This document shows, in pieces, positions 11,913-52,265 of a stretch of 64,000 nt of DNA. Each line of letters starts with the position of its first letter. Within the stretch, counting starts at the first letter, position 1. The stretch lies in the IMG/VR virus record IMGVR_UViG_3300045988_108148, one strand, 5' to 3'. The DNA is from a virus. Position numbers and translations under genes: made by a program. A model generated the notes under the pieces. It made no database searches, was not told the DNA's origin, and worked only from the letters and a program-made list of their open reading frames with translations.

Positions 11913-11913
11913 T

Positions 11914-18742: not shown

Positions 18743-18744
18743 TT

Positions 18745-20508: not shown

Positions 20509-20509
20509 T

Positions 20510-21282: not shown

Positions 21283-21321
21283 AACGCTAGCTAATCTTGT
21301 ATTGGTTAGCGTTTTGTTTTT
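21283..21321 (+). terminator. rho-independent terminator
   Basis: Stem aacgcta / tagcgtt with a 17-nt loop, followed by ttgttttt. Confidence 0.55.
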
Positions 21322-21347
21322 CAATCATCCTCTTTCAAATTGTTGTA

Positions 21348-22498: not shown

Positions 22499-22545
22499 TT
22501 GCAATACATTTCAATTTAGTGTTAATCAATAAATAAATTGAAACT

Positions 22546-23307: not shown

Positions 23308-23347
23308 TTATCAAATTATATATAAATCAATTAAATTATAAATCATT

Positions 23348-36993: not shown

Positions 36994-39900
36994 ATGGAAA
37001 CATCTATATTAGACAAATACAATGCTGGTTTAATTCCTTCTAAAACCAATGCCACTACTGCCGCTATACGGCAAGTAAATGCACAGCATTCCCCTTTAAC
37101 AAAAATTAAAACAGGGTACGATCGTGAATTGGAACAAACTCCAATTGATGATTATGAAGAAATGTATCTATTGGACAAAGAAAATCCAGAGGAAACTCTT
37201 AAAGATAAGAGCTACTTAAAAGATGCATGGACCACTTTTATGAATAGTAGAGATCAAATCAATCTAATGTCGGAAAGAGCTAAATTAGCTAAGGATATAA
37301 ATCCCGTATTAGATGATATTGATTATGAATTGAATTTTCTTAGTGATAAGCAAAAGCTTAAAAATCTTGAAAATACTATTCCTACTTTGGATGAGAATTC
37401 TGAAGAATACAAAAATGCAATATCTGAATATTTTCAACTTCAAAGAACATTAGCAGATAGACAAGAGCAATACGATAGCATCTTGTCTAAATATGGTGAA
37501 AAAGAGGGTGATAACATTGATGCGAGAATTGAATATCTAAGTAATTCTAGAAAATCGTGGGAAGAAGAAAGATCTAAAGTAAATGAAGAAATAAATAATA
37601 TATACTCTAACTTACGAGAAAGATCTGAAAATTATACACCGTCTTCTGAATTTAGAATAAAAGAACAAAGAGCTCAAGACAAACCTTGGTATTCCCCAGA
37701 TTATTTCTTATACGCTGGTCCAGGTTTAACAGGTTCTTCTATGGCAACTGTTAATGGTTATATTGCAGATGCTTTAGCTACTGGAGCTTTATGGTTAGGT
37801 AGACACTATGCTACTACTGGAGCATTGAACGCTGTCCCTGGAATTGGTGCTGCATCTAATCTAATTGGGTGGGGTAGTGCAATTGCAGCTACTGCAGCTA
37901 GTGTTGCTGGTAATATATACAGTAGACATAGAGAATCTTTAGCTCAAGTATATGGTGCGTATAGATCTAGAATTGAAGATAGTTTAAAGGAACAAGGTAT
38001 TGACATTAAACAATATGCTGAAATTGGTAGAAACCAGTTAAAACAACAAGACCCCAATATAGATGTTTCTAAGATCTCTGATGATGAGATAATAGATAGA
38101 GTTATATCTGGAGAGATAAACATAAATGATGCAACTCTAGCAAATGCTAAAAGATCTTTAAAAGATGGATTAGAAAGAGTTTATGATAACAACATGGCAT
38201 TATCTGCTATGGATGTTGCTCAATCTGCTTTAGTATTTGCACCTCTTGGTAAAGCTATGGGTAAAATAATAACAGCTCCAATTAAAACTGCTTTAAACCC
38301 ATTGTTAAAAACAGGTACGAAATTAAGCGAAGCTGCAGCAAGTAAATATAACAAACTTATAGACGCTTATACTGGGTTTAATGCTAGACTTGCATACAAT
38401 TCCCCAGTAAAAAATGCTAGTTTACAAGCTGCTAAAGCACTTGGTAGATTAGGTTTCTCTGCTACTGGAGAAGCATTTGAAGAAGCTAACCAAGACATAT
38501 TTGATTATGATTATATTTCTGGTAAGTATGATAAAAAGTCTAGCAGTGTCTTTCAATCCTTAATGGGGTTAGCTGATGCCAACTATCGTACTGCAAAGAT
38601 ATTATCTGGAATAGATACTGAATCTGAATTAGCAAATGATCCACAATTTTGGAATGATGTAAAAGGTGGTTTTGCATTAGGTTTATACATGGGTGGACCT
38701 ACAATTGCTTATCATTCTGGGTTAAAGACTTACAAAGACATGACTGCCAACTCTTTTGTAAGAGACGTAGTTGCAGATCACATTGGTAAAAAAGATGCAA
38801 TGATCAAAGCTATGTCCTACTCTGAGATGGCAAACAAAAAATTAAACTATCAACAAAATGTACTTGATGTACTTGAAAACTACAAGTACAATCTACCAGA
38901 AGGTATCACTGAACAAGATTTAAATGATGAGATAGCTACTGCAAATAATATCTTTAGTTTATCTAAATCTAAAGTAAATCAGAACATTGGTAAAACTATT
39001 GGTTATAATCCTGGGACTACTGAATATAATACTTTAATTGGGTTGCAACACTTGGCAACAATAGATGCACAAGAAGCACTTGACAATGCCAATCAAGCAC
39101 AAGAGGCAGACAATGCTTTCTATACTACTTTGGAAAATGATCAAATGTTAAATCATTATTCTCCAGAAGAGAAGCTTACTGCTGTTGCATTAACTAAGTT
39201 AAACATTCAAAAGCAAGCATTAGAACAATTAAAAACAGCACTCGAATCTAAGCCAGAAGAAAATCAACAAAAGTTTGGTATAACGAATGAGTCAAATGCT
39301 GTTGGTAAATCTATTTCAAAAGAAATACCTAATATATTAAAAGACATAGATGCTAAACTAAATCAATTATCAGAAGGTACTAGATTCAGTTCAAACTTCA
39401 TAGCCACTCCAAATTTGGTTAACAAAGGTATTGATAGTTATGTCAACACAATGATTGCAAATCATGACCTTTTGGTAGCTGAGCATAAGATGAACGAAAT
39501 ATTCGGCAATACTTTGGAAGATGGCAAACTTATAAACTTCAACAACGCTTCTAATGAATCAAAAAAGAATATAGGTAAAAAGATAAAAGAAAGAATTGAT
39601 AATTATATAAACAATTCAGATGAAGCATCAAAGATAGTAGAAGAAAATGCAAAGGATGTTGTTGAAGCAGAATCTGCAAAAGAAATGTCTAGAGAAGCAG
39701 CTAATCAAAGTGATGATCAACAACCTATTACTAACAACGAAACTCAAGTAGATAATCAAGTAGCTACTGAAGTAGAGCAAGAAAAGGCAACGTCTCCAAA
39801 AACTCCTATTATGGATGACAGGGCTACTTCTGACATTGATACTAAAATACCAGTAGTAGAGAAGGAAATAAAAGAAGATGAAGAATTTCCTACTAAAGGA

Positions 39901-42900
39901 TTAGAAGAGTTAAGTAAGGAGTTTGAAGAAACCTTAGCCAAAGTAAAAGAAAAAAAACAAGAAGATACTGAAAGGAAACCTAAACCTGAGCCTAAACCAG
40001 TTGTTGAAACTCAAGAAGACGAAGAGGATGAAATAGAATTTGAGCGAGCTGATGAAAAAGCTCTGATAGATCTTGCAAATTCTGAAGCTGTTTCAGACGA
40101 GGATGATAAAAAAGTATCTGAAACTTATGAAACTTCTAATCCTGAAGTAACTGAAGAATCTCAAGTAAAATGGGCCCGTAAGAAGATTGCTACAGAATCT
40201 AAAATGAACAGAAGAGCAGATATGGACTCTGAGACTAGAGATTTGGATGAATCTTTAGAAATTGAGGAAATGGTACAAGATAAAGTATCTCATACACTGT
40301 TCTTTAATCCTGATGCTACAACGCCTATTTATCCTGGTACCAAGCCAGGCAAGGAATTAGCAGAGAGAATAAAAGATCCAAACTTTTTTAATGATAGTTT
40401 CTGTGAGTTTGTTATAAATAAAGATTATACAGAAAAGGGGCATAAACCATATAAAGAAAATGATCCTAGTACATATGATTCTGCATCTATAATAATGTTA
40501 ATTCATCATGGCACTGGCGATTATGCAATGGCTTTGAAAACTCCTTCTGGAGCTAGAACTTTCTTAGCAGCAAAATTAGCTAGCATACCTAAAGAAAGGC
40601 TTACAGAAGAGGATATTAATCTTATTAATAATGCTAATGATTTATCTATAGCAGATTTACGTAGATTTAGAAATGCAGTAATTTCTACAATAGAGTCTGC
40701 GACAAATGATGAAGCTGTAGTACCTAGCACAATAGTTAGAACTAAAGGAATACCTAATGTTGTTAGAAAAGATGGTAGAGCTGTATTCAGACCAATACAC
40801 GAAGTAAAAGGCTTACAGATACCAACAGAAATTACTGAGATTACTCCAGAAAATGTAACATTTGGTATAAGTGATGGTATTGTAAAAGATTCTGATATAA
40901 TAGGAGCCAATGGTGAAATGTTGCCAGGTAAAGGTGGTAGTGGACAATTGTTTATTTATCCACCAAAATCTAGTACTTTATCAAATCAAATGTTGCCATT
41001 ACAATTAACTCTTCAAAGATTTGACAGGAAGCAAGCTGAGTTTTTAGCTGACTTGTTAATCAATTATGGCACTAATACTAACTCTGAATATAGAGATACA
41101 GGAGTTATTGCTGGAGAATTAATTGACTTTATGGTTAGATTTGGAGATGCTACCAAAGTAACCACTGCAGATAAAACATTTGATTGGTTAAAAGAAAAGC
41201 AATTGTATATTGATGATAAATCCAATCTAATAGTTGGTGAAAAAACATTCAATATAGGCAATTTATCTACTCAGGATAAAAAAGACATAGTTGAAGCTTT
41301 AATGGGATTCCATTGGCGTGTAGCTAGAAAGAATTTCTTCAGCCCAATAAAAGAAGCATTACCTTCTGTATATGATTATTTTAACAATAATTCTGTTGAT
41401 TTGCTTGATATCATTCCAGGTATATCTCTTACTAAGGATGATTTCATTTCTTCTACCCCAGTTTATACTATGGGTGTGTTAGAAAAAGCTGGTATAATAA
41501 GAAGTGACTTAGATGATCAACTATTTAAAGATTCTTTCGCATATGCTGAAGATGTTCAAAAGATACCAAGAAAGATCAATAATCCTGAAGTAAAAGAAGC
41601 TGTTGAAAATAAAGCCAGTTCGTTACCAAATATTCCTAGCACCCCAGAACCACAGACAGAGGTTACTGAAGATGTTACGACTTCTGAAGTTACAACTCAA
41701 GATGATTCTTACATAAAGGAAATAACTAATGATGGAGAAATAGATCCTTTGAGTTTGGGAATTGATGAAGATTTTGATGTACCTTTTCGTAAAGTTGCAG
41801 GAAATATATCAGAAGTAGTAACTCCAGAAGAAATTCAATGGTTTAGAAATAAATTAGGATTACCAGAAGATTCTTTACATATCGTTGAAGATGCTATTGC
41901 ACTTGGTGGTAATGAGTATGCTATGGGTCTTGTTAGAAAAGATTCTACCATACTGTGGAAAGGTGCAGAACGTGGTACATTGTATCATGAAGCATTCCAT
42001 AGAGTATCATTATTAACTATTTCTCCAAAGGAAAGAAAGAAAATTTATGAATTCTATAGAAATAGAACTGGTTTTGTTGGAAGTGATAAACAAGTAGAGG
42101 AAGCTTTAGCAGAAGACTTTAGGCAGTATATGCTAAATAAAGTAGATCCTGAATTAAATCTTCTTAAAAGAGCTTGGAAAGCTATTAAGAATTTCATAAG
42201 TAAATGGGTTTGGAGAACCGATACTAGTATTGATAATATTTTTAATAGAATCGATTCTGGTTATTACAATAGATCTAAACAAGATTCGGCTGCTGTAAAT
42301 GAATTTCTTGCTGCATATAAAGGTGCAGGTGCTCCATTTAAAATAAGAAACCACAAATTTAAAAACATTACTAACACACAATTCAAAGAAACTGTAAATT
42401 CACTTGTAGGTGCTTTATTTACATTAAATAACATAAGACTACGTGATGATTTGCAAAATCTTAATTATGGAGTGTTAAAAGCTGCATTAAAACCAGAAAT
42501 AACAGCAAAGTTAGTTGAAAAAGGAACTATTACTAAGGAGCAAGGGGAAGTTAGAAATGAAATATACAATACATTTGATACTGTATTTAAACCAGAAATT
42601 ATAAATAAATTAAATGAGTATCAAATAAGAGCAGTGGATAAGCAGGAAAATATTGATGCAGAGATTGATGAGAAAGCAGTTGGTAATGATGTAGGTGATC
42701 AGATGGCTAACTACATTCAAGAACAATTGGCTGTTTCAGTTAAAGATAATGCTCTTGCATCTATAAAGATTTTCATTGCAACAATGCCTAGGACAGAATT
42801 TGTCATGAAACAAAAAACAAATCCTGATGGCACTGTGACTCAAGTACAAGGTGTTGCTGCAATAAAGAGTCCTGTTACAGGCTTACCTCTAATGGTTGAC

Positions 42901-45900
42901 TTTGATAAATCTTGGAATACAATTATTAATGAAATTCACTCTGAAAATACATTCAAAGGAATGATGGACAAGAGTGCAAAACTTGCTAAAGTAACACCAT
43001 TATTTAAAACTTTGTATAATGAGTTATACAAGATTACAAATGAATATGTACAAAAGAAAGGTATTCAAGAGGACGAAGTTCAAAAAATAGCAAGAGAGAA
43101 TTTACAAACTCAGTTTAGAAACACATTCCGTAAAGCTAGACACAAGTTAGTTGGTATTTTATCAGAAAAAGTTGAAGATGAAAACGGTAATGAACAAACT
43201 AACTTGTATGTTAAAGATGAAAATGCAAATAAAGTATCTAAAAATATATTAGAGGGTTGGAATTACAATTTAATAACAAACAGTGGTGTATTAGATACTT
43301 CTGATAACTTATTTAAAGCAAAAGTTAGTGAGTCTGAAGAATTCGTAGCTAGAGAAATCAACAATGAATTCAATAAAATAATAAAGATTGTAGAAAAATA
43401 CAAAACTACACCTAACAAGAAACTAGTAAATGGTCAAACTTATAAAGAGTATGTACCAGAGAAGTTAATTACTATTAAGAATAAGATAGTTGATTTACTT
43501 AATAAAGTTGGAGTAGAAATTGATTTAGAATCATTAAACTCCTTCCTTACTAAGGAATATTATAATTCAGATTCTACTGAGTCATTAGTTTCAATGTTAT
43601 CAGATAGATCCAATAAAGGTATATATTTCTTCTTTAATTCTAAAGTAAAGGACTTAGCAAAGATTCAAGAAAGTGGCGTAGTTCCTGGTCAATATAATAG
43701 AAGTATTACAAAATATTATGATGACTCTAAATTCTTAGGAAGACTTGCTGAAACATATGCAATGTTGCATCCTTCTTCTGATGAATTATCAGTATTATCT
43801 ACTGATGGTAAATTGTTGTATCCTATATCAGAACACAATTATTTGTCTGACATGGTTCAAAGATTGGATAATGACCCAGCAACAGTAGAAGCACTTACCA
43901 AAGTATTATACAATACTGGTAATAATACCAATCCTAATTACTTCAAGGGTTCTGTATTGTTAACAAATTTATATAATAATGCAGATGCTAAAGGTAAAAT
44001 AGGATTTGAAACTCTTGTTTATTTTAAAGAACAAGGTAGTGCAGATAAAGGACGTAAGTACACAGAAATATCCCCTCTTGAAGACTATATTGCTAAGATG
44101 ACATTCACTAGAGCAGGTAGAATTATCTTACCTACTATGGGTGATTCTCAAACATATAATACATTATATGGTACTGCAATAAACAACTTTAAAAATCCAT
44201 TTGACGTAAGTAATGGTGAAATAAAATTCGATGCTCAAATTCTTAAAAGATTTATTAATTACTTTGAAACTGAATTAGATACCATTGAATTTAATTACAA
44301 GAATGAAAATAATTTAACTGAGGAACAAAAAGTAAAGAACTATGATACAGGAAATAGAAATGGTTATAGATTCAGATACTTCAATGGATTCTTTAAATTG
44401 AAAGAAAGACCTACGTTAAATGGTATTGAATTTGAAAAAGATTTTTCGAACTTTAACGAAGCATTAGACCTAGCAGAAGATCTTGGTGGTAATGAATATG
44501 GAACTTCTATTATTTCTCAAATAAGAAATAATTGGAATAAGTTCAGTAATGCTGAAAAAGCAAATCTAATGAATAACTACCTGTGGGATGCATTTAAAGA
44601 TGAGTTAAATTATGCACAAGAATTAGGTATAATTAAATGGGATGGTAATAAAATAGCTAGTGTAACGAGTTTAGCATTGCCCCAGAAGGCATTAGAAGAA
44701 GCATCATCACATTATAAAAAATCTGCAACAGTTTCTAATTATAGCGAAAATCTTGGTGCTGCTGAAATGATTGGTAATTATTTTGCTAATACCATTTCTT
44801 CAGTAATTGAATTTGAGAAACTTTTTATAAAAGATCCAGCCTACTACAAAAATCCTGTAGATAAAATTAAACGTTTACGTGAGGTATTATCCACTGGTGT
44901 TACTCCAAGAATAGACTACGAAGAAGGAAATACAATGGCAGATCTCACTGAAGTGAACGTAGGTACACTATCAGATAATGTTATCGTAAGTAGACAAGCT
45001 GATCAAATTGCAGAGTATGCTAAAAGATCTGCGGCTATACGCTTGCTTCAGGAAATGCACAATATGACATTAGATGAGGCAATTAGAACTTACGATAGTT
45101 CTGAAGCTTTACCTCAGGATGTAGAAGATGCAGCTAATCTTATAGTAAGAGATAAATTTAATGGTTATCTTAATCCAAAAGGTAAAGTAAACCAAACTGA
45201 TGCCACAGTACTAATATCTCCAGAGTTTTATAAAGAACTAGTACGTAGAGTAGATGGATGGACACCGCAAGTAGCAAAAGCATTTGACTTACTTAATGAT
45301 CCAAATGCAGATCTTGAAGCAGATATGGATACGTATGCAGAAGCATTGGCGGTTACATTGAAACCTTTGAAATTCATGTATTTTGGTGATCATTACGATG
45401 TAGGTGCTAAAAGGGATATACCAATATTTGATAAGATGGCTATGTTCCCTGTACATCGTATCTTCTCTACTGGGGACATGGGTAAAGTATTGGAAGTTAT
45501 GCAATCACGTAATATCCATATGCTTGCTTTTGATTCCGCAGTAAAAGTAGGACAAAGGGCTAAAGAAGTTAAATCAAGAATCTATAAAGATAAGACTAAT
45601 AAAGAAATAGACATGGACAGTCTGATGTCAATGCCTACTCACAAACAATCTTTGGCTAACTTTAGACGTCAGTTAATTACTGATCCTCACCATGCAGAAA
45701 GACAAATGTTTGTATCTCAAGCACAAAAAGCTGCCATGGGTAATATCAGAAGTGCATGGAAATATACTACACCAGATGGTAAAGTATATAATGGTGATGA
45801 GTTGATTAATAATTTTAACGGTGCTCACAATGCCATTACTGAAGCTGGTAGAAGAGAGATAGAAAGAGATTTTGGTATTACTCCAGATAAACCTCAAGTA

Positions 45901-48900
45901 AGTGTACAAAGATTTGCTGAAATTATGCAACGCAAAGCTTTAAGTTCAAACATGAATGACAATGTTATTAATGGTTTGGATGTTGAAAATGGTGAAACTG
46001 TTGCACCAATTTCTGGTTTATCTGATAACTCTTGGATAGAAAGTGGTCTTATATCAATGTTGAATAAGTCAATTGTTGATACTAACTTACCAGGTGGTAT
46101 GTTTATTCAAATGTCTTCAATATTGTACAATAGAATTGCTGTAACTTCAGACGCACAAAATGAAAGAAAGCTAAGATTTGCAAACACTGATGGTACTATG
46201 GATTGTGTTATTTCAATTAACTTATTGAAACACATAATTCCTGATTACGATAAAAAGACTTTCAGTGAAGCTAAAAAGTGGTTGATAGATCATGATATTG
46301 TTGGTCCGAATTCTAAAGCTCTTGCAATGGGTTATCGTATCCCTGCTCAAGGTCAAGCATCAACTGCAGCTCTTAAAGTGGTAGATTTGTATCCTGAACA
46401 AATTGGTGATACTATTACATTACCTGATGAATTTACATCTCTTACTGGTTCTGACTTCGATATTGATAAATTGTTCGTTGCTAGATATAACTATGATAAA
46501 AACGGTAATAGAATCAAATTTGAGACTAAAGAAGATTACACTAACAGACTCAGAGAAGCTGGCTTAGATGATGAAACCATAGTTCGTAAAGTCTACGAAA
46601 GATATAATGGTAAAACTGATTTTGAAGCTAATTCAAAGGAAGCAAATGAAAATATGCTTCTTGATATGTATATATCAGTTATTTCTAACCCACTGAACTT
46701 TGCAGAAGCTAGACAACCACTAGATACAGTAACCGATTACTTAAAAGATACTATTCTTAAAGAAGTAGATACAATAACTGGTCAAGGTAAACGTACAAGC
46801 AAATCCCAACTGTATTATGCCACTCCAGCATTCCAGAGTAGAACTAAGGCAGAGTTGAATGGTGGTAAATTTGGTATTGGTCCATTTGCATTAGCAAATG
46901 CTCATCAAGTTCTTACTCAATTGGTCAAATTAAGATTTAAACCAAATAAAATTTTAAGAGACTATGGTATAAGCAATTTGTATGGTATCCAGAGTAATGA
47001 TAGAAATAAGATTAATATCCTTGACTGGTTATCAGCATTAATCAATGCTCATGTGGACGTTGCAAAAGATCCATACATCATTCGATTGAATGTAAGGAAG
47101 TTAACATTTAATATGACTAACTTCTTGATAAGATCTGGTAAAGGTGAAAGTACATTCTATTTCTTACCTCAACAAATATTAAAAGACTTTGCAATAGAAT
47201 ACGATAAATACTCTGGCTTTTATAATGTAGATACACAAAACAAAAATCCTGAAAGTCTAGCATATAGAACTATTTGGAATACATATTTTGAGAAAGCAAA
47301 ATCTTTATCTAAAGGTAAATATGATCAGCTTTTAGACTTTTTGAATGATAAAGGTGTAGGTGTTAAACAAAGAGAAAAGATGTTCGATGTCAATTACTTA
47401 AAGAAGCAATTGAAAAAAGAAGAAACATTTGATTGGTACTACAATCAGTTGCTCATTATGAAGACTTATCAAGAACTTAATCCGTTCTCAAGATCTTTGT
47501 CTGAATTAACTACATTGTCTCAAATTGATACTAAGCGCTTTGGTAATAATTTTGGTTTACAAAGTGCATTCTTGGATAAATGGAAACAATTCATGGTAGA
47601 GCAACAAGTATTTGAAGATCCTATAAAGGTATTCTCAAATACATTCTTAGGTAAGAAAATGCAAGATGCATTAATATTCCCTAGAATTGCCTTCCAAAAC
47701 ACAATGATTAGACTTACTCCAGAATTTGAAAACTTAAGAACATTAATAGAATTCTATACTAAAGGTTATGCAATTAGTGATGATACATACATTAATAATA
47801 TTACCAGAAGTATGGAAGCTACGTATAAAGCTGGTTTCTTTAATAAGTATTTAGCTGAAAATGGAATAAAGCTCAGTAGTTTGTTAGGTGGTCCAAATAG
47901 TATCTCTAAGAGATTGGATAGAATTAAATCTGATGTAAGAAGTGGCAAATATCCAGATTTATTAAGTAGTGATGGTTCATTTGAAAATGTACTTATTAAT
48001 AACATCTTTAGTAGACCAAAGGAAGATACAACTGAATTAAATGGTCCTGATTTTATTGCTTACAAACCAAACAAGAGTGGTGATAATAACTTAGAAAATG
48101 AGATCATTAGAGCTTGGGAGGAATTGTGGGATAGTGATTATCAGGAAATAAGAGATTTTGCAAAAGATCTTGCATTGTATGCTTTCTATACTTCTGGTGA
48201 TGCATTTGGTAAGAATAATATCTTTAGATATGTACCTAATTCAATCAGAGAGGAAATAGGTTATTTTGATTACATTAGAGATTTAGAACGAAATCCTGAT
48301 GATGCAGTTAAAGATATTAAAGTATTCCAAGTAATAAAAGACTTGTGGTGGAACGACCACGTAGTTCCTACTATTGATTATTACGTATTAGATTCTAGTA
48401 GAGAAACTATTGAAGAAGAAGGTAGACCTGTATACAGGGCGTTACCTCACGAAGATAGTGGTTTTACTGTAGTAAACAAGAAAGGAGTAGAAGTACAAAT
48501 TCCTGGCATCATATATGATAAAAAGTCTCAATCTATAATTTCATTCAATCAAAATGGTCAACCTATATATCCACCATTTAAAAAAGTAAAATTAGATAGA
48601 AATAATGATCCTAGAACTACGTTCCTGTATGAGTACATAGGCATTAATGAAGATGATGCCCCAGTGTACAGATTGATTAACAAGAAGGGAATGAGTTATA
48701 GAGGAAACATATTAATTGAGAGTGGTAGAAATAGATCTGTTCTTAAATACAACAATGTTGTACCAAAGGGTTATGAAATTATGCCAGAAGAACAAATAAC
48801 TTGGGTTACTGATCTTACTCCGGTAAAAGCTAGCTTACAAGCAAAGGCATTTAATCAAGCTGGTGAATTTAATACAGACATGCTTGCTAATATACAGCAA

Positions 48901-51900
48901 ACGGTTAAAACTCAACAAGCAACTGAACCATTATCTTATCAAGAATGGGTTAAAGACTATCAAACTCAAAAAGGTGAAGCTGATGCAGAAGCGGCATATC
49001 AACAATATCTGGATAACTTTGAGTACAGTAGATCACAAGAAACACAAGATATAAATAACTCTGCAAATACTGATAATGATCCTGCTAATTTTAATGATGC
49101 TTCATCAAGTAAAGCAATAATAAGTAGTAATGCAACAATTCTCACAAACGAAGAATTAAGGAAACTTAAACCTTTTGTAGGGAATAACCCTAGAATTGGA
49201 GTAGCTTCTGAATATACTGATCCCGCATTCTTTAGTAAACAGATAATAAGGGTTTTAAATGGTGAAGAAGTGATATCAGATAAATTTGGTAGAACTTTTT
49301 CTGGAACGGATTTCAATGCTTTATATATAATTACAAAGCACGATGGTCTTCCAATTGAGAACTTGTTGAAACACAAAATACCTAAAATAATTCATTTTAG
49401 TATAACTGGATTGGGTGGTACAAAATATGAGCCAGGAGTAATGAAACCTAATGATTTACTTGATAGAATTCAAGCTATGTTAAAATTAGGACTTGACCCA
49501 GAATCTGTTACAATACGAATAGATCCTATAGTTCCTGGTGTAACTTCCACAAAAATGATAGAGAATATTGTAAAGCGTGCTTCAGAAATGGGCATTAAAA
49601 CAATACGTTTCTCTATAATGGATCAATACAAGACTACCAAAAAGTACATGGAGGAATTAGGATACGATTATTCTAAGTTCTATGATGGTGTATCTATGCA
49701 CGCTAGAGATGACGTACGTGAACAAATAGAGACATTTATGGACTCTCTTATAGATAAATATGGAGTTACGATGTCTACTTGTGCAGAACCTCTTTCATCG
49801 AATAGTAGAATTAAACGTGATGCATGTTTGTCCGTAAATGCTGTAAACAACATGTTAGGCACAAATGTACCTCAATCTGCTGGTACAGGTAAACGAAAAC
49901 TATGTTCTTGTTTTGGTGGTAAAACTGACTTATTGAAATATGATAATGTGTGTGCATCTAGCTGTGCTTACTGTTATGCTCATCATAATAATGATAACAT
50001 TCTTAAATATTATAATGAAGATGGTTCATTAAAAGATATACCTCTTACCAGAGTGTCTAAAATTGATGAACAGTCTCCAGTACAACTAAATGCATCTGAA
50101 CAACCCACTACACCTGCAGTAGAACAACCAGCAATTACTGACACTACTAAAGGATTTTCTCTAGAACCGTTTATAAATAAAATATTTCCAGATTGGAAAT
50201 CAAAACTTCCAAATTTGCCAGAGGAATTAGCTGCTGAATTCATGTCATGGAGTATTGTACCTGGGATAGATGAGTGGTCAATAAAAGATAGAATTGAGAA
50301 ATATAAAGATTTTGAAATCGAAGAAGAAACACGGGAAGCAATAAAACGTGGGGATAAAGAAGGAATTGTTCAAGGTATTGCAAACACAATTTCTTATGAA
50401 TTGGCTAAGGATGGAATCACAGAAAGAGATCTATTTATAAATTTATTTGGTCAAAGTTATGTAGATAAGGTAGACAGATATGTTGCTGAAATCAAAGCCG
50501 AAGTTCAGAAAGAAAAAGATACTACTAAGGAATTCTTAGATTATGCTAATCAATTTGGTTTTACTGATGAAGCTGCTTCACTTGCAAAAGACTTACCAAA
50601 AGCAGTTGAAGAAGCTAAGAAAGTAGAAGAAGAGTACGTATTTACATTTAATGATGGGTTTAAGATCAATTTACCATTCTCATTAAATGATCAACAGAAA
50701 TCAGCTCTATATGAATTAGAGAAGTTTATTGAAGATGGTGGAACTGAAATTACTTTATCTGGTTATGCTGGTACAGGTAAATCTACTATCATTGGTATAT
50801 TTAGTAAGTGGTTGAATAATAGAATTGGTAGAGGCAACATTGTATATACTGCTCCTACTCATAGAGCAAATGTTATAACTAAACAAAATAATCTTAATGC
50901 TAATGTATATACGCTTTCTGCTCTATTTGGGTTTACTCCAGATACAGATATAGCAATGGAACAAGGTTCATTGGATTTAAGAGAACTGGAGTTTAGAGCC
51001 AAGAATCAAATGAAATACGAACCAGGTCAATTAATTATCATTGATGAAGCTTCAATGGTACAAGATGGCTTGTATGAATATATTCAAGAAATTGTAGCTA
51101 AACATAACGGTAGTGTAATATATGTTGGGGATTCTGCACAATTGAGACCTGTAAAATCAGATCATATTTCTAAAGTGTTTACATCTGATGGAGTACCTCA
51201 AATAACTTTAACCAAAGTAGAAAGAACTGGTGATAATCCTATTTTAAAAGAAGCCACCAGACTTAGACGAGGTGAAGGATTGAGTTACCAAACTGATATA
51301 AATGATAAAGGTCAAGGAGTATTGTACACTTCGGATGATGCAATTATAGATAAAAACCTGAAACAGATTGTTACTTCTGAAGAGTTCAATGCTGATCCTT
51401 TACATTTTAGAGTATTGACTGCTACAAATGCTGCAGCATCTACATATAATTCAAAGATTAGATCTTTGAGATATGGAAAATTTGCTAAACCATTTGTAAA
51501 AGGTGATATTATAATGGGGTATTCAAACAAACTCAGAAAACCCGATGGATCTTATAGATTAATAAACTCTGGAGATTATATAGTTCAAAGTGTAAAGGAT
51601 ACCAACATTAAATTCAAAACCGATAAAGGGGATATAGAATTTAAAGCATTCAATTTATCAATTAGACCGACTGGTGGTACTATTATGGATGACTTTCAAC
51701 TTACTGTAATTGACAAAAATGAACCAGATTCTAAGCTATTTGAAGTAGTAGAATATAAAGATAGATTGTGGAAAATGGCTAAAGAAGCTAAACAAAATGG
51801 GCAAATATCTAAATATAGAGATTTAGTTCAAATGGCGTACAATGTTGACAATGAACTGAATATTACCAAGAATTTGGAAGATAACCAAGGCAGGTTAAAA

Positions 51901-52263
51901 ATTAGAAAAGCAATTGATTATGGATATGCACAAACTGTTTGGAAATCACAAGGTAGTACGTACAGTAAAGTTTTAATACTCTCCAATGAAATTGATACGT
52001 TTGGTTATGGTAAAGATGTAATGCAATTAAGAAATGAGTTGAGATATGTAGCTGTGTCACGTGCTAAAAACTTTGTTATAATAAATTCAGAAGCAGAGAA
52101 TAAGAAGAAAGTTTCTATGCGAAATGAAATAGCCGAAGAAGATTTATTAGACGATATAGAATTTGAACCAGCTACAGAAGAACAAGCAATAAATGCATCT
52201 TTGCAGGATTCAATTGATGAGTTAACAGCAAATGGTAAACAACGTAGAAAAGAATGTGAATAA
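36994..52263 (+). CDS. giant multidomain virion protein (5089 aa) containing crAss-type two-barrel RNA polymerase, zincin motif, DUF1848-like Fe-S domain and SF1B helicase
   Basis: An uninterrupted 15.27-kb ORF. The motifs are listed as sub-features below. Confidence 0.85.
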   Translation: METSILDKYNAGLIPSKTNATTAAIRQVNAQHSPLTKIKTGYDRELEQTPIDDYEEMYLLDKENPEETLKDKSYLKDAWTTFMNSRDQINLMSERAKLAKDINPVLDDIDYELNFLSDKQKLKNLENTIPTLDENSEEYKNAISEYFQLQRTLADRQEQYDSILSKYGEKEGDNIDARIEYLSNSRKSWEEERSKVNEEINNIYSNLRERSENYTPSSEFRIKEQRAQDKPWYSPDYFLYAGPGLTGSSMATVNGYIADALATGALWLGRHYATTGALNAVPGIGAASNLIGWGSAIAATAASVAGNIYSRHRESLAQVYGAYRSRIEDSLKEQGIDIKQYAEIGRNQLKQQDPNIDVSKISDDEIIDRVISGEININDATLANAKRSLKDGLERVYDNNMALSAMDVAQSALVFAPLGKAMGKIITAPIKTALNPLLKTGTKLSEAAASKYNKLIDAYTGFNARLAYNSPVKNASLQAAKALGRLGFSATGEAFEEANQDIFDYDYISGKYDKKSSSVFQSLMGLADANYRTAKILSGIDTESELANDPQFWNDVKGGFALGLYMGGPTIAYHSGLKTYKDMTANSFVRDVVADHIGKKDAMIKAMSYSEMANKKLNYQQNVLDVLENYKYNLPEGITEQDLNDEIATANNIFSLSKSKVNQNIGKTIGYNPGTTEYNTLIGLQHLATIDAQEALDNANQAQEADNAFYTTLENDQMLNHYSPEEKLTAVALTKLNIQKQALEQLKTALESKPEENQQKFGITNESNAVGKSISKEIPNILKDIDAKLNQLSEGTRFSSNFIATPNLVNKGIDSYVNTMIANHDLLVAEHKMNEIFGNTLEDGKLINFNNASNESKKNIGKKIKERIDNYINNSDEASKIVEENAKDVVEAESAKEMSREAANQSDDQQPITNNETQVDNQVATEVEQEKATSPKTPIMDDRATSDIDTKIPVVEKEIKEDEEFPTKGLEELSKEFEETLAKVKEKKQEDTERKPKPEPKPVVETQEDEEDEIEFERADEKALIDLANSEAVSDEDDKKVSETYETSNPEVTEESQVKWARKKIATESKMNRRADMDSETRDLDESLEIEEMVQDKVSHTLFFNPDATTPIYPGTKPGKELAERIKDPNFFNDSFCEFVINKDYTEKGHKPYKENDPSTYDSASIIMLIHHGTGDYAMALKTPSGARTFLAAKLASIPKERLTEEDINLINNANDLSIADLRRFRNAVISTIESATNDEAVVPSTIVRTKGIPNVVRKDGRAVFRPIHEVKGLQIPTEITEITPENVTFGISDGIVKDSDIIGANGEMLPGKGGSGQLFIYPPKSSTLSNQMLPLQLTLQRFDRKQAEFLADLLINYGTNTNSEYRDTGVIAGELIDFMVRFGDATKVTTADKTFDWLKEKQLYIDDKSNLIVGEKTFNIGNLSTQDKKDIVEALMGFHWRVARKNFFSPIKEALPSVYDYFNNNSVDLLDIIPGISLTKDDFISSTPVYTMGVLEKAGIIRSDLDDQLFKDSFAYAEDVQKIPRKINNPEVKEAVENKASSLPNIPSTPEPQTEVTEDVTTSEVTTQDDSYIKEITNDGEIDPLSLGIDEDFDVPFRKVAGNISEVVTPEEIQWFRNKLGLPEDSLHIVEDAIALGGNEYAMGLVRKDSTILWKGAERGTLYHEAFHRVSLLTISPKERKKIYEFYRNRTGFVGSDKQVEEALAEDFRQYMLNKVDPELNLLKRAWKAIKNFISKWVWRTDTSIDNIFNRIDSGYYNRSKQDSAAVNEFLAAYKGAGAPFKIRNHKFKNITNTQFKETVNSLVGALFTLNNIRLRDDLQNLNYGVLKAALKPEITAKLVEKGTITKEQGEVRNEIYNTFDTVFKPEIINKLNEYQIRAVDKQENIDAEIDEKAVGNDVGDQMANYIQEQLAVSVKDNALASIKIFIATMPRTEFVMKQKTNPDGTVTQVQGVAAIKSPVTGLPLMVDFDKSWNTIINEIHSENTFKGMMDKSAKLAKVTPLFKTLYNELYKITNEYVQKKGIQEDEVQKIARENLQTQFRNTFRKARHKLVGILSEKVEDENGNEQTNLYVKDENANKVSKNILEGWNYNLITNSGVLDTSDNLFKAKVSESEEFVAREINNEFNKIIKIVEKYKTTPNKKLVNGQTYKEYVPEKLITIKNKIVDLLNKVGVEIDLESLNSFLTKEYYNSDSTESLVSMLSDRSNKGIYFFFNSKVKDLAKIQESGVVPGQYNRSITKYYDDSKFLGRLAETYAMLHPSSDELSVLSTDGKLLYPISEHNYLSDMVQRLDNDPATVEALTKVLYNTGNNTNPNYFKGSVLLTNLYNNADAKGKIGFETLVYFKEQGSADKGRKYTEISPLEDYIAKMTFTRAGRIILPTMGDSQTYNTLYGTAINNFKNPFDVSNGEIKFDAQILKRFINYFETELDTIEFNYKNENNLTEEQKVKNYDTGNRNGYRFRYFNGFFKLKERPTLNGIEFEKDFSNFNEALDLAEDLGGNEYGTSIISQIRNNWNKFSNAEKANLMNNYLWDAFKDELNYAQELGIIKWDGNKIASVTSLALPQKALEEASSHYKKSATVSNYSENLGAAEMIGNYFANTISSVIEFEKLFIKDPAYYKNPVDKIKRLREVLSTGVTPRIDYEEGNTMADLTEVNVGTLSDNVIVSRQADQIAEYAKRSAAIRLLQEMHNMTLDEAIRTYDSSEALPQDVEDAANLIVRDKFNGYLNPKGKVNQTDATVLISPEFYKELVRRVDGWTPQVAKAFDLLNDPNADLEADMDTYAEALAVTLKPLKFMYFGDHYDVGAKRDIPIFDKMAMFPVHRIFSTGDMGKVLEVMQSRNIHMLAFDSAVKVGQRAKEVKSRIYKDKTNKEIDMDSLMSMPTHKQSLANFRRQLITDPHHAERQMFVSQAQKAAMGNIRSAWKYTTPDGKVYNGDELINNFNGAHNAITEAGRREIERDFGITPDKPQVSVQRFAEIMQRKALSSNMNDNVINGLDVENGETVAPISGLSDNSWIESGLISMLNKSIVDTNLPGGMFIQMSSILYNRIAVTSDAQNERKLRFANTDGTMDCVISINLLKHIIPDYDKKTFSEAKKWLIDHDIVGPNSKALAMGYRIPAQGQASTAALKVVDLYPEQIGDTITLPDEFTSLTGSDFDIDKLFVARYNYDKNGNRIKFETKEDYTNRLREAGLDDETIVRKVYERYNGKTDFEANSKEANENMLLDMYISVISNPLNFAEARQPLDTVTDYLKDTILKEVDTITGQGKRTSKSQLYYATPAFQSRTKAELNGGKFGIGPFALANAHQVLTQLVKLRFKPNKILRDYGISNLYGIQSNDRNKINILDWLSALINAHVDVAKDPYIIRLNVRKLTFNMTNFLIRSGKGESTFYFLPQQILKDFAIEYDKYSGFYNVDTQNKNPESLAYRTIWNTYFEKAKSLSKGKYDQLLDFLNDKGVGVKQREKMFDVNYLKKQLKKEETFDWYYNQLLIMKTYQELNPFSRSLSELTTLSQIDTKRFGNNFGLQSAFLDKWKQFMVEQQVFEDPIKVFSNTFLGKKMQDALIFPRIAFQNTMIRLTPEFENLRTLIEFYTKGYAISDDTYINNITRSMEATYKAGFFNKYLAENGIKLSSLLGGPNSISKRLDRIKSDVRSGKYPDLLSSDGSFENVLINNIFSRPKEDTTELNGPDFIAYKPNKSGDNNLENEIIRAWEELWDSDYQEIRDFAKDLALYAFYTSGDAFGKNNIFRYVPNSIREEIGYFDYIRDLERNPDDAVKDIKVFQVIKDLWWNDHVVPTIDYYVLDSSRETIEEEGRPVYRALPHEDSGFTVVNKKGVEVQIPGIIYDKKSQSIISFNQNGQPIYPPFKKVKLDRNNDPRTTFLYEYIGINEDDAPVYRLINKKGMSYRGNILIESGRNRSVLKYNNVVPKGYEIMPEEQITWVTDLTPVKASLQAKAFNQAGEFNTDMLANIQQTVKTQQATEPLSYQEWVKDYQTQKGEADAEAAYQQYLDNFEYSRSQETQDINNSANTDNDPANFNDASSSKAIISSNATILTNEELRKLKPFVGNNPRIGVASEYTDPAFFSKQIIRVLNGEEVISDKFGRTFSGTDFNALYIITKHDGLPIENLLKHKIPKIIHFSITGLGGTKYEPGVMKPNDLLDRIQAMLKLGLDPESVTIRIDPIVPGVTSTKMIENIVKRASEMGIKTIRFSIMDQYKTTKKYMEELGYDYSKFYDGVSMHARDDVREQIETFMDSLIDKYGVTMSTCAEPLSSNSRIKRDACLSVNAVNNMLGTNVPQSAGTGKRKLCSCFGGKTDLLKYDNVCASSCAYCYAHHNNDNILKYYNEDGSLKDIPLTRVSKIDEQSPVQLNASEQPTTPAVEQPAITDTTKGFSLEPFINKIFPDWKSKLPNLPEELAAEFMSWSIVPGIDEWSIKDRIEKYKDFEIEEETREAIKRGDKEGIVQGIANTISYELAKDGITERDLFINLFGQSYVDKVDRYVAEIKAEVQKEKDTTKEFLDYANQFGFTDEAASLAKDLPKAVEEAKKVEEEYVFTFNDGFKINLPFSLNDQQKSALYELEKFIEDGGTEITLSGYAGTGKSTIIGIFSKWLNNRIGRGNIVYTAPTHRANVITKQNNLNANVYTLSALFGFTPDTDIAMEQGSLDLRELEFRAKNQMKYEPGQLIIIDEASMVQDGLYEYIQEIVAKHNGSVIYVGDSAQLRPVKSDHISKVFTSDGVPQITLTKVERTGDNPILKEATRLRRGEGLSYQTDINDKGQGVLYTSDDAIIDKNLKQIVTSEEFNADPLHFRVLTATNAAASTYNSKIRSLRYGKFAKPFVKGDIIMGYSNKLRKPDGSYRLINSGDYIVQSVKDTNIKFKTDKGDIEFKAFNLSIRPTGGTIMDDFQLTVIDKNEPDSKLFEVVEYKDRLWKMAKEAKQNGQISKYRDLVQMAYNVDNELNITKNLEDNQGRLKIRKAIDYGYAQTVWKSQGSTYSKVLILSNEIDTFGYGKDVMQLRNELRYVAVSRAKNFVIINSEAENKKKVSMRNEIAEEDLLDDIEFEPATEEQAINASLQDSIDELTANGKQRRKECE
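37714..37923 (+). other. glycine-zipper/hydrophobic membrane-active segment of giant protein
   Basis: AGPGLTGSSMATVNGYIADALATGALWLGRHYATTGALNAVPGIGAASNLIGWGSAIAATAASVAGNIYS. Confidence 0.6.
41986..42000 (+). other. HEXXH zincin metallopeptidase motif (HEAFH, aa 1665-1669)
   Basis: Context GAERGTLYHEAFHRVSLL with downstream EEALAEDFRQY as a possible third ligand or Glu helix. Confidence 0.55.
46453..46467 (+). other. DxDxD catalytic motif (DFDID, aa 3154-3158) of double-psi beta-barrel RNA polymerase
   Basis: The context MGYRIPAQGQASTAALKVVDLYPEQIGDTITLPDEFTSLTGSDFDIDKLFV parallels the NRAPTLH...NADFDGD region of beta-prime. This motif type is known from crAss-like virion RNAPs. Confidence 0.8.
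49189..49990 (+). other. DUF1848-like Fe-S (radical-SAM/SPL-related) domain, aa about 4066-4332
   Basis: The ordered motifs are VASEYTDPAFF, IITKHDG, IHFSITGLGG, RIDPIVPGV, IRFSIMDQYK, STCAEP and GKRKLCSCFGGKTDLLKYDNVCASSCAYCYAHHN. They match the DUF1848 pattern (ASRRTDIPAF...FWTK...RYDPI...ETCAE...CGC...C..C.YCYAN). Confidence 0.65.
50670..52090 (+). other. SF1B (RecD/Dda/Pif1-like) helicase domain, aa about 4560-5035
   Basis: Motif I GYAGTGKST, Ia VYTAPTHRAN, II LIIIDEASMV, III VIYVGDSAQLRPV, V YAQTVWKSQGSTYSKV, VI LRYVAVSRAKNFVII. Confidence 0.85.
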
Positions 52264-52265
52264 TT

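Follow-up and report, generated by a model that had tools for sequence, protein, structure and literature searches.

We found a genuine, full-length DUF1848 domain with a conserved cysteine cluster inside a crAss-like RNA polymerase (RNAP) polyprotein encoded in the window, that is, the whole stretch of 64,000 nucleotides of the IMG/VR record IMGVR_UViG_3300045988_108148 that was analysed. The domain is a mobile, interchangeable cassette and no fixed part of the RNAP with which it shares the protein, and its substitution pattern points to very strong purifying selection. With roughly even confidence we read it as a complete and functional DUF1848 enzyme, probably of the Fe-S/radical-SAM kind, that would act on nucleic acid as a swappable effector delivered with the virion.

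The DUF1848 domain and the protein that carries it

A preliminary description of this DNA had read a DUF1848-like domain at 49189-49990 from a series of ordered motifs, and all of these (TDPAFF, IHFSITG, RIDPIVPGV, IRFSIMDQYK, STCAEP and CSC...CASSCAYCYAHH) are present on the + strand in a stop-free frame. The assignment is borne out by a match to PF08902 with E=6.3e-23 (82.4 bits against a gathering cut-off of 30.5). The local alignment covers profile positions 62-262 of 262, and longer scanned segments give the same match. As the PADLOC model PDLC03815 (RTasDUF1848) is matched over positions 5-240 of 242 (E=4.4e-28), the domain is complete in the window, and this coverage, together with an N-terminal Glu that is invariant in the alignment A2 described below, shows that the N-terminal (S/T)E-x-x-DP strand is included. 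The limits first proposed for the domain are right to within a few codons. Conservation of the phage cassette reaches about 50052, slightly past 49990, because a phage-specific tail (YYNEDGSLKDIPLTR) follows the domain. This tail motif was found once per locus, after the Cys cluster and confined to that site, in 15 of the 20 IMG/VR loci and in the contigs L002, L004 and L030, the other 5 loci not being caught by the search pattern; the variant YYNLDGTL occurs in P0004, a carrier of the same kind of insertion. The antisense (-) strand of 49189-49990 is stop-rich and holds no ORF, and an Rfam search of 47000-53000 gave no match.

The segment lies, as had been proposed, within a larger protein, a single ORF of 5089 aa whose parts follow in the order zincin HExxH motif, DFDID RNAP, DUF1848, cassette X and SF1 helicase (Table 1). 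The DFDxD motif and the homology to phi14:2 gp66 identify the polymerase as a crAss-like virion RNAP; the phmmer match to 6VR4 spans query positions 1730-2228 of the translated segment 39994-48990 of the window. A Pfam scan gave no match in the HEAFH region and no family for cassette X, and in the helicase the UvrD_C_2 match stays under its Pfam cut-off (19.4 bits vs 27.4).

It had also been said that the assignment would fail if the cysteines were not conserved among homologs, and they are conserved. In the alignment A2, made with 26 free-standing cellular DUF1848 proteins that have 25-32% identity to the phage domain, 19 columns are invariant (7 Cys and, besides, E, K, E, R-D-P, R-S, Y, R, K and Y). 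The residues C4263, C4278, C4304, C4306, C4320, C4324 and C4327 of the polyprotein align with the invariant Cys of the cellular members, the CX3CxYC loop being invariant at C258, C262, Y264 and C265 of the alignment, and all 7 are retained in 20/20 of the IMG/VR phage copies. Of only 10 Cys in the giant ORF, 7 fall within 65 residues, all in the DUF1848 domain (chance 6e-12 for one fixed 65-residue window and about 3e-8 when corrected over all windows); the ortholog in the phage cr50_1 has 3 Cys in 4774 aa.

Table 1. Features of the polyprotein and its cassette region, in window coordinates
Feature	Position	Strand	Basis
Polyprotein with crAss-like virion RNA polymerase, polyvalent-type build	36994..52263	+	Intact ORF of 5089 aa; ORF list and translation
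HEAFH motif, aa 1665-1669, possible zincin-type metalloprotease site	41986..42000	+	Motif scan alone
Virion RNA polymerase core	45181..46677	+	phmmer vs PDB: 6VR4 chain A (phi14:2 gp66), E=1.2e-30
Catalytic DFDID of RNAP, aa 3154-3158	46453-46467	+	Motif scan
Left junction YLDNFEYS, conserved	49006..49029	+	Final residues common to cr50_1 before divergence
Hypervariable cassette region, 484 aa (cr50_1: 169 aa)	49031..50499	+	blastp/blastn vs cr50_1
DUF1848 domain, aa 4066-4332, beta/alpha-barrel enzyme domain	49189..49990	+	Pfam, PADLOC, AF2 model, dN/dS
Four additional invariant Cys: C4263 (TCAE), C4278 (ACLS), C4304 and C4306 (CSC)	49780..49911	+	Alignments A2 and A6; 20 IMG/VR loci
CASSCAYC, aa 4320-4327, CX3CX2C; candidate [4Fe-4S]/SAM site	49951..49974	+	Motif scan; A2
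C-terminal tail of the cassette, phage-clade-specific (NNDNILKYYNEDGSLKDIPLTR)	49987..50052	+	Follows Cys cluster in phage loci
Low-complexity linkers DEQSPVQLNAS and EQPTTPAVEQPAITDTT, recombination junctions	50065..50148	+	Comparisons with cr50_1 and L030
Cassette X, about aa 4386-4502	50149..50499	+	Weak match to phrog_29131 only, E=0.0014
SF1 (RecD/PIF1/UvrD-like) helicase domain	50683..52077	+	Pfam AAA_30, E=7e-25; AAA_19 and PIF1 over cut-offs
Walker A of SF1 helicase	50761-50784	+	Motif scan

Cassette exchange and selective constraint

The closest reference genome, cr50_1 (NC_055868), has 96% nucleotide identity to the window, and its ortholog of the polyprotein, gp059 (4774 aa), is 98% identical over aa 1-4018 and 92% identical over the last 587 aa. 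DUF1848 is absent from this genome, a point that adds to the preliminary description, and its slot is occupied by an unrelated phrog_2072 domain; blastp and blastn against cr50_1 over the hypervariable region gave short linker matches only and none to the DUF1848 part, the linker DEQSPVQLNAS being common to both. In the contig L030 the slot holds DUF1848, an ART-PolyVal-like segment and cassette X, with the extra ART-PolyVal-like segment and a step in dS both mapping to about 50140-50147. The slot of L031 holds DUF1848 and NADAR, the latter between DUF1848 and the helicase. Cassette X is absent from cr50_1 and was not detected in L031. More widely, DUF1848 occurs in about 60 giant proteins (2000-7200 aa) and at very different positions in them, and cassette orders are shuffled in the 20 IMG/VR contigs. 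When 11 giant proteins were scanned, a helicase was found in 3, NADAR in 3, and cpYpsA, DUF7831 and ART-PolyVal in 1 each. The set of cassettes therefore comprises the SF1 helicase, NADAR, the ART-PolyVal-like segment, DUF7831, the phrog_2072 domain and others. The GC content of the cassette (0.31-0.36) is not distinct from that of its flanks (0.28-0.36), so that composition gives no hint of its having come recently from a foreign source. At the cassette borders the only repeats are short imperfect matches, probably due to chance.

On comparing the window with L030, the dN/dS of DUF1848 was found to be 0.006 (38 synonymous and 1 non-synonymous substitutions); the corresponding values are 0.105 over 3146 upstream codons that include the RNAP and 0.13 for the helicase.

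A search of a library of 1.8 billion proteins gave 822 cluster representatives that match the window domain at E <= 0.001. The preliminary description had suggested looking for free-standing homologs in other crAss-like genomes, and in the crAss-like contigs examined the domain is embedded in a giant protein. One short phage homolog, P0001, appeared free-standing but proved to be part of a giant ORF with TAG recoding, and several further short matches in phages look truncated, since their start or end falls inside the domain. The cellular type gave 0 matches in 50,697 GenBank phages and 1 in 72,556 plasmids, and thus the idea that the free-standing form is typically phage- or plasmid-borne gains little support. 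No conserved operon partner of cellular DUF1848 was found in 17 GTDB genome loci, 8 metagenome loci and 1 plasmid. The neighbours include NrdD, PolA with UDG, UvrD/SF1 helicase, HNH, Dam methyltransferase, an endonuclease and NT5C, as well as SIR2/HipA/Fic islands and transposases, and no DUF1848 substrate can be deduced from neighbourhoods so heterogeneous. In favour of a link to nucleic acids, some of these neighbours are nucleic-acid enzymes; the cellular gene overlaps a UvrD gene in the locus L006 and adjoins an SF1 helicase gene in L015, and on the phage side 12 of the 20 IMG/VR loci, P0034 and the window have DUF1848 fused or adjacent to an SF1 helicase.

Fold, candidate chemistry and proposed delivery

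The domain had been linked earlier to the radical-SAM/photoproduct-lyase fold. This link stands in part: the CX3CxYC loop is invariant and weak profile matches recur, whereas the Pfam profile Radical_SAM (PF04055) gives no significant match to the domain (E=0.65) and the better of two structure models matches generic TIM barrels only. The motif CASSCAYC has CX3CX2C spacing with an aromatic residue before the third Cys, and such spacing with the aromatic is a signature of radical SAM enzymes, which are TIM-like barrels. Canonical members carry the cluster motif after strand 1, and in DUF1848 it is the last element of the domain. Of 101 family members, 15 match rSAM_PA0069 weakly (best E=6e-6) and 5 match rSAM_Rv2578c, with no other recurrent family. 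For the window domain the values are E=1e-4 and E=5e-3, both far under the cut-offs (scores of about 21 bits vs family cut-offs of about 360). Similarity to COG1533/spore photoproduct lyase is confined to the central 77-114 residues at 16-24 bits, with no full-length match above the family cut-off; several DUF1848 members are named 'DNA repair photolyase' in the JGI annotation. The isolated CASSCAYC loop gives weak, non-significant matches to radical SAM models (E 0.0015 to 0.6), which fall on N-terminal model segments (PA0069 67-77, LipS2 27-73, CofG 16-41 and KedN5 197-222 of 624). A circularly permuted radical SAM fold was considered by moving the motif to the N-terminus, and the rise of the rSAM_PA0069 score from 21.6 to 24.4 bits is too weak to uphold it. 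Neither the single domain nor the family profile nor the circularly permuted profile has a meaningful sequence relative in the PDB.

Structure prediction, proposed earlier as a check, gave an AF2 model with pLDDT 89.5 and pTM 0.89, in which seven beta-strands alternate with helices. With the first, weaker model (pLDDT 73), Foldseek placed spore photoproduct lyase best (TM 0.41), NifB and SuiB also leading. The better model matches generic TIM barrels only, at TM <= 0.35 (N-acetylneuraminate lyase, dihydropyrimidinase, hydantoinases and triosephosphate isomerase), and spore photoproduct lyase is outside its top 50. Because the better model failed to reproduce the match of the first, fold likeness is not used here for lyase-family membership. 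A search of BFVD gave a few phage radical SAM proteins at TM of about 0.35, with AP endonucleases low in the list. Judged from the invariant CX3CxYC motif and the weak recurrent profile matches, radical-SAM chemistry is plausible for DUF1848: the C-terminal CX3CxYC of its beta/alpha barrel would most likely bind a [4Fe-4S] cluster for chemistry of this type, and the four additional invariant Cys, as putative ligands, would probably make up another metal or Fe-S site.

The carrier had been called a virion protein, and this holds to the extent that its RNAP part is homologous to phi14:2 gp66, an RNAP that is carried in the virion and moved into the host cell (Drobysheva et al., bioRxiv 10.1101/2020.03.07.982082); packaging of the window protein is read across from such homologs. 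Fused polyproteins of this group probably undergo cleavage and include a zincin-like protease domain, and transcription of the phi14:2 RNAP gene falls in the middle and late phases (Drobysheva et al., 10.1101/2020.03.07.982082). In crAss001, RNAP-associated cargo proteins were detected in virions by mass spectrometry, and cargo proteins must unfold in part to exit the virion (PMC10172136). By analogy, the window polyprotein would be delivered into the host cell. With its effector cassettes lined up after the RNAP, this crAss-like cargo polyprotein has the architecture of a polyvalent protein. We propose that its synthesis takes place late in infection, that it enters the capsid as cargo, and that on ejection it would reach the Bacteroidota host in a partly unfolded state, either before the DNA or together with it, and refold there. 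As cargo unfolds partly on exit, an oxygen-labile cluster would be lost and would need rebuilding in the host, a point against this reading; host machinery would load or reload the DUF1848 module with iron-sulfur. The module would then act on nucleic acid in the first minutes of infection, most plausibly on the phage DNA that enters and is handled by the adjoining helicase and RNAP, and a lesion or host-imposed modification would be removed or repaired, or a nucleic-acid-based defence neutralised. The likeliest role of DUF1848 would thus be that of a delivered, nucleic-acid-directed effector in counter-defence or repair.

A delivered cassette may also work without radical chemistry, as a TIM-barrel hydrolase, lyase or nuclease that depends on a metal, much like amidohydrolases or AP endonucleases, with its Cys-rich tail binding zinc or a structural or DNA-sensing Fe-S cluster. 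We regard this as unlikely, though deserving of some weight: the foremost matches of the better model and the appearance of AP endonucleases in the BFVD list fit it, as do the unmatched Pfam Radical_SAM profile and the cluster outside the canonical position, and many invariant polar residues (E, K, H, E, R-D, R-S, D, E, R, K) would suit a polar active site. However, TM values this low to hydrolases indicate a shared barrel only, and a barrel of this type is common to radical SAM enzymes; the exact spacing with its invariant aromatic is theirs, and the sole recurrent profile matches are to two photoproduct-lyase-like radical SAM families. Also unlikely is the more specific possibility that the injected domain is a radical SAM enzyme related to spore photoproduct lyase by circular rearrangement and bearing two Fe-S sites; carried in the RNA polymerase cargo, it would refold, take its clusters from the host and chemically reverse a DNA lesion, or a DNA or nucleotide modification imposed by the host, on the entering genome.

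The place of action may be different as well. Since the producing cell, too, contains the giant gene at a late stage of infection, the domain could act before packaging, so that the late polyprotein or a fragment of it modifies or repairs progeny DNA, its location in the cargo being incidental or the cassette being cleaved off and left unpackaged. The middle and late transcription in phi14:2, the cleavage thought to occur in such polyproteins together with the HExxH motif of the window protein, and the easier Fe-S maturation in the cytoplasm than after unfolding and ejection are in its favour. We consider it improbable all the same, because DUF1848 in the phage loci examined is always in frame in the cargo polyprotein and not a separate late gene, and the NADAR, ART-PolyVal-like and SLOG-type cassettes with which it alternates or co-occurs are known from delivered polyvalent proteins (PMC5512222). 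That the domain is a decaying or neutral passenger, recently acquired and without function in the window phage, is least credible of all. The absence from cr50_1 would agree with it, as would a 1-nt deletion within the DUF1848 of L030, but this change falls within an A5 homopolymer in an assembly of short reads, where an error is the likeliest cause; the catalytic-looking residues and 7 Cys are retained in 20 diverged phage lineages, and the substitution pattern effectively refutes it.

Implications and comparison with known systems

DUF1848 is a widespread family that is now placed in a clear setting, as a constrained and swappable module of a crAss-like RNAP polyprotein, and crAss-like phages are reported to dominate the human gut virome (PMC7886860). 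It alternates or co-occurs with modules linked to ADP-ribosylation, such as NADAR and the ART-PolyVal-like segment. The window, cr50_1, L030 and L031 are four near-identical genomes or contigs that differ essentially in the cassette slot; as strains that differ only in the module, they could be used to find its function, in a natural experiment that relates the module to the hosts infected, the defences evaded or the DNA damage tolerated. Should the Fe-S/SAM chemistry be true, the polyvalent-protein repertoire would be extended to radical enzymes, and it may be asked how an enzyme with an oxygen-labile cluster survives packaging and the unfolding at ejection. If it is indeed an injected radical SAM enzyme, this would be the first function for DUF1848 and, to our knowledge, the first known virion-delivered radical enzyme in phage-host conflict. 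RefSeq calls gp059 of cr50_1 'DNA helicase' only, and the RNAP and variable cassettes are hidden by this name.

The preliminary description knew of no described role for such a domain in this setting. Our literature search likewise gave none: PMC9226505 assigns DUF1848 no function, PF08902 is not mentioned in the literature searched, and the 2021 crAss survey with its supplements does not mention DUF1848. Compared with the PF08902 cellular proteins (about 245-260 aa; bacterial and archaeal), the phage copy is end to end the same domain, having the 19 invariant columns in common and sharing the 7 Cys, GG-x3-EP, R-I-D-P, R-x-S and the C-terminal CX3CxYC. The cellular proteins consist of this one domain and stop a few residues past CYCYW, whereas the phage copy lies inside the polyprotein and is extended by a phage-specific tail (YYNEDGxLKD..TR, about 22 aa); copies from some phage lineages contain about 100 inserted aa. 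With the spore photoproduct lyase/COG1533 families the domain shares weak collinear similarity in the central strands (FSIT...RIDPIxPG), the CX3CxYC motif, the JGI label and, as modelled, a beta/alpha barrel, but its cluster motif is C-terminal where theirs is N-terminal, and it has four extra invariant Cys. It may work in their manner without being a member of their families.

In the bacterial UG25 system, DUF1848 partners a methyltransferase-reverse-transcriptase, in the place that a UvrD helicase takes in the related UG35 (Mestre et al. 2022, PMC9226505), and the defence role of UG25 is rated inconclusive (PMC9226505). The phage domain scores 96.7 bits on the PADLOC RTasDUF1848 model, against about 52 for two ordinary cellular DUF1848 proteins. 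Both settings are ones of genetic conflict with nucleic-acid enzymes, but in UG25 the domain is a separate bacterial gene beside the methyltransferase-RT, and the window copy is phage-side and without RT.

The survey text on polyvalent proteins (Iyer et al. 2017, PMC5512222) holds no DUF1848, radical SAM or Fe-S domain. The likeness to these proteins is in the build, that is, a giant phage protein with a zincin-type motif, a helicase and variable effectors, among which the ART-PolyVal-like segment, NADAR and SLOG-type domains are shared and are shuffled in order between relatives. The window protein, too, combines several unrelated enzymatic domains, and its relatives vary in content, carrying NADAR, an ART-PolyVal-like segment, DUF7831 and cpYpsA in shuffled orders; the scaffold, unlike in the surveyed proteins, is the crAss-like virion RNA polymerase. 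For the phi14:2 gp66 and crAss001 cargo, the texts (10.1101/2020.03.07.982082 and PMC10172136) make no mention of an Fe-S or DUF1848 domain. The window protein resembles this cargo in the DFDID RNAP core (6VR4) and in belonging to the same large cargo gene block, and differs from it in that the protease-like, RNAP, effector-cassette and helicase parts are fused in one ORF.

Conservation of the DUF1848 domain and its place in a giant protein

All the motifs quoted in the preliminary description for window positions 49189-49990 were found in a stop-free translation of the plus strand, the reverse strand of this segment being full of stops, and an intact ORF encloses it (see table). Its assignment to DUF1848 held, as PF08902 is the single strong Pfam match (E=6.3e-23, 82.4 bits vs a gathering score of 30.5), covering profile positions 62-262 of 262. 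The DUF1848 model of PADLOC, which was built from DUF1848 proteins accompanying UG25 reverse transcriptases, was matched over its whole length (positions 5-240 of 242, E=4.4e-28), and since this model is covered end to end the domain is complete. An exhaustive HMMER search with the domain gave 822 matches at E ≤ 0.001 and supplied 26 free-standing DUF1848 proteins (245-266 aa) as the comparison set. On aligning these with our domain, 19 columns were found to be invariant. They include every one of the seven Cys, R-x-D-P in RIDP, R-x-S in RFS, the Lys in ITKH and the Glu in each of SEYTDP and YEPGV; Cys, Lys and Tyr are likewise constant throughout the C-terminal segment C-x-C-x3-K-x9-C-x3-C-x-Y-C. 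The conserved Cys cluster already remarked on in the preliminary description is also kept in the IMG/VR copies (all seven Cys in 20 of 20). The presence of the domain is confirmed far beyond chance, and the Pfam family to which it genuinely belongs is a known one that is still uncharacterised.

The region around the DFDID motif of the giant protein is homologous to the virion RNA polymerase (RNAP) gp66 of phage phi14:2 (PDB 6VR4, E=1.2e-30). In some crAss-like phages the RNAP and its neighbours form one fused polyprotein, described as "likely cleaved", one component of which bears a zincin-like protease (Drobysheva et al., bioRxiv 10.1101/2020.03.07.982082), and the RNAP-associated proteins of crAss001 were found in virions by mass spectrometry and need partial unfolding to pass the tail (PMC10172136). 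Because of the gp66 homology and this virion detection, we have good grounds to infer by homology that the window protein is virion cargo. It may be noted that RefSeq calls the 4774-aa ortholog in cr50_1, the closest reference crAssphage (NC_055868), only "DNA helicase", naming neither the RNAP core nor the variable cassette. The whole 5089-residue window protein has just 10 Cys, seven of them within 65 residues of DUF1848 and 3 in the about 4800 aa outside it; the cr50_1 ortholog, which is without DUF1848, has 3 in 4774 residues. This near-absence of Cys in a giant cargo protein may reflect adaptation to being packaged, unfolded and ejected.

Features of the giant protein, its cassette slot and related DUF1848 loci
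Feature	Sequence	Position	Remarks
Giant ORF	window	36994-52263	5089 aa
HEAFH motif	window protein	aa 1665-1669	
DFDID motif	window protein	aa 3154-3158	inside RNAP-homologous region
DUF1848 domain	window protein	aa 4066-4332	
SF1 helicase	window protein	C-terminal	AAA_30 (E=7e-25), PIF1, sub-threshold UvrD_C_2 match
Phage tail YYNEDG(S/T)LKDxxxTR	window	49987-50052	directly after Cys cluster
Segment X	window	50149-50499	about 117 aa, between DUF1848 and helicase
Cassette slot	window	49031-50499	
Cassette slot	L001 (cr50_1)	21032-21555	
Cassette slot	L030 (Logan contig)	about 10560-11031	
Cassette slot	L031 (IMG/VR contig)	3380-4006	
Inverted repeat, 24 nt	window	48999-49022 and 50451-50474	79% complementary
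Ortholog of giant protein	L001 (cr50_1)	8995-23319	4774 aa
Insertion in DUF1848, ~100 aa	L042-L046, L049 (phage)	2501-3712	also in phage protein P0004
DUF1848 homolog	LR756501.1, LR756503.1	319199-319945	25% identity
663-aa ORF	L011 (Oscillospiraceae)	6894-8885	own ORF call
UvrD gene	L006 (cellular)		overlaps DUF1848 gene
SF1 helicase	L015 (cellular)		neighbour
PolA with UDG domain	L016 (cellular)		neighbour
HNH	L007 (cellular)		neighbour
Dam methyltransferase, NrdD	L005 (cellular)		neighbours
Endonuclease	L008 (cellular)		neighbour

Exchange of the cassette among strains and phages

When the window protein is aligned with its cr50_1 ortholog, identity is 98% across aa 1-4018 and 92% for the final 587 aa, and between the aligned parts, bounded by the common junctions YLDNFEYS and DEQSPVQLNAS, lie 484 aa in the window vs 169 aa in cr50_1, where the slot is occupied by an unrelated phrog_2072 domain (E=1e-36, no Pfam family). 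The near-identical strain L030 (nucleotide identity 93.5% on one side and 97.7% on the other) also has this DUF1848, and after it come ~470 nt of additional sequence, inserted at the linker EQPTTPAVEQPAITDTT; this extra segment is ART-PolyVal-like and under the Pfam cut-off (25.7 bits vs 31.2). The other such strain, L031, carries a domain 99% identical in amino acids to that of the window and then NADAR (Pfam E=6e-17) in place of segment X. Segment X itself matches no Pfam family, has only a weak phrog_29131 match (E=0.0014), is absent from cr50_1 and was not detected in L031. Thus four genomes or contigs with flanks 93-99% identical hold DUF1848 plus X, phrog_2072 alone, DUF1848 plus the ART-PolyVal-like segment plus X, and DUF1848 plus NADAR; DUF1848 is a swappable cassette in a strain-level exchange hot spot between RNAP and helicase. 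Between the window and L030, synonymous divergence falls from about 0.25 on the left to about 0.05 on the right at roughly 50147 (about 50140-50150), and this drop at the low-complexity linker marks a recombination breakpoint. The cassette and its flanks cannot be told apart by GC content. An imperfect inverted repeat that brackets the variable region is probably due to chance in AT-rich DNA. Also, at about 10001 of L030 (~ window 49555) the DUF1848 frame is broken by the loss of a single base from an A5 run, which is probably an error of the short-read assembly and less probably a real frameshift.

Beyond these strains, the exhaustive protein search found ~60 giant proteins of 2000-7200 aa with DUF1848 at positions ranging from residue 117 to 6498. 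Scanning 11 giant proteins gave DUF1848 in all, helicase and NADAR in 3 each, and cpYpsA, DUF7831 and ART-PolyVal in 1 each. In 20 IMG/VR contigs, roughly half of which are 82-133 kb long, the RNAP C-terminus is followed by cassette arrays where DUF1848 stands in permuted order with SF1 helicase, NADAR, DUF7831, ART-PolyVal, phrog_2072 and another, unnamed cassette. The YYNEDG tail occurs a single time per locus and in phage copies only, cellular DUF1848 having none; it could be a cap for the cluster, a processing site or a docking element. One phage lineage has a long insertion within DUF1848 between the RFS and TCAE strands, and a distant homolog lies in two 735-kb "uncultured phage" records of megaphage size, both of them without annotation. 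The crAss-like contigs examined gave no support to the free-standing crAss homologs suggested earlier. Short, seemingly free-standing matches have to be read with caution: the one that was checked (P0001) was rejected, its gene call being an artefact of TAG reassignment: in its contig L002 (1-19000), from a related phage, almost every gene call ends in TAG and then runs on in frame, and this phage reads TAG as a sense codon. The same contig has a LAGLIDADG endonuclease gene inside the giant-gene region.

Chemistry, substrate and possible role

The AlphaFold2 model built with a 101-sequence alignment (pLDDT 89.5, pTM 0.89) has seven strands alternating with helices, the last strand leading into the Cys loop. 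The radical SAM affinity proposed at first is plausible and found support only in part. In its favour, the C-terminal C-x3-C-x-Y-C, with its invariant Tyr, is the classical radical SAM signature, and an NCBIfam scan of 101 family members matched rSAM_PA0069 in 15 (best E=6e-6) and rSAM_Rv2578c in 5, with no other recurrent family; these models, both relatives of spore photoproduct lyase, fall on the central FSIT...RIDPIxPG strands. JGI labels several members "DNA repair photolyase", and a first, lower-confidence structure model gave spore photoproduct lyase, NifB and SuiB on top at TM about 0.4. On the other side, Pfam Radical_SAM did not match the domain (E=0.65), and the better model retrieved only generic TIM barrels among known structures (TM ≤ 0.35). 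A BFVD structure search returned the cr272_1 homolog first (TM 0.78) and a mixed list after it, and PDB sequence searches with DUF1848 found no relative. The cluster loop lies at the C-terminus; shifting it computationally to the N-terminus adds only ~2.5 bits to the rSAM_PA0069 score, and the permuted version found nothing in the PDB. Having weighed the evidence for and against, we hold an Fe-S enzyme of radical-SAM type, perhaps a rearranged spore photoproduct lyase relative, to be the likeliest chemistry, at somewhat better than an even chance and short of established; the domain does not belong to the spore photoproduct lyase family itself. With four further invariant Cys, it may well have a second metal or cluster site. 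A metal-dependent barrel hydrolase or lyase of non-radical mechanism, with Zn or a structural Fe-S tail, is a distinctly less probable reading.

As to the substrate, no conserved partner of DUF1848 was found across the cellular neighbourhoods examined, in which DNA enzymes (see table) and mobile or variable islands recur; SIR2, HipA and Fic are also among the neighbours, and on a Ruminococcus albus megaplasmid the gene lies near recombinases and transposases. In an Oscillospiraceae locus, the 663-aa ORF adjoining a canonical DUF1848 gene has an N-terminal DUF1848-like part without CX3CX2C, fused to a NAGPA phosphodiester glycosidase domain. The methyltransferase-RT system UG25 is partnered by DUF1848 and its relative UG35 by a UvrD helicase, the defence role of UG25 being judged inconclusive (PMC9226505). 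In phages, an SF1 helicase lies in the 2.5-kb flanks at 12 of 20 IMG/VR loci, directly adjacent in nine. Taken together, the cellular neighbours, the UG25/UG35 pairing and the phage helicases point to a nucleic-acid substrate in a conflict setting and to no specific reaction.

Our best overall explanation, to which we give about an even chance, is that the DUF1848 module would be delivered as an effector with Fe-S/SAM chemistry and, early in infection, would work together with the helicase and RNAP on the entering DNA or another nucleic-acid target, in repair, de-modification or counter-defence. A serious problem here is that ejected cargo must unfold (PMC10172136), so the cluster would need to be reassembled inside the host. 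Action in the producing cell instead, on progeny DNA before packaging, seems improbable to us. That the domain is a non-functional passenger is hardly credible and is contradicted by dN/dS: between the window and L030, 38 synonymous differences and a single non-synonymous one fall in it (dN/dS 0.006), as against 0.105 over 3146 upstream codons including the RNAP and 0.13 in the helicase, which makes DUF1848 the most constrained part of the giant protein.

What the preliminary description had observed, a DUF1848-like domain embedded in a putative virion protein, was accurate as such. In the literature searched, we found no description of the combination of DUF1848 with a polyvalent or cargo-polyprotein architecture, of its behaviour as a cassette swapped at strain level, of its extreme constraint, or of the possible injection of an Fe-S radical enzyme. 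The text of the polyvalent-protein paper (Iyer et al. 2017, PMC5512222) mentions neither DUF1848 nor radical SAM domains; the polyvalent proteins it describes have the same architecture as the shuffled cassette arrays seen here, and this architecture is of a known type, that of polyvalent proteins and crAss cargo polyproteins.
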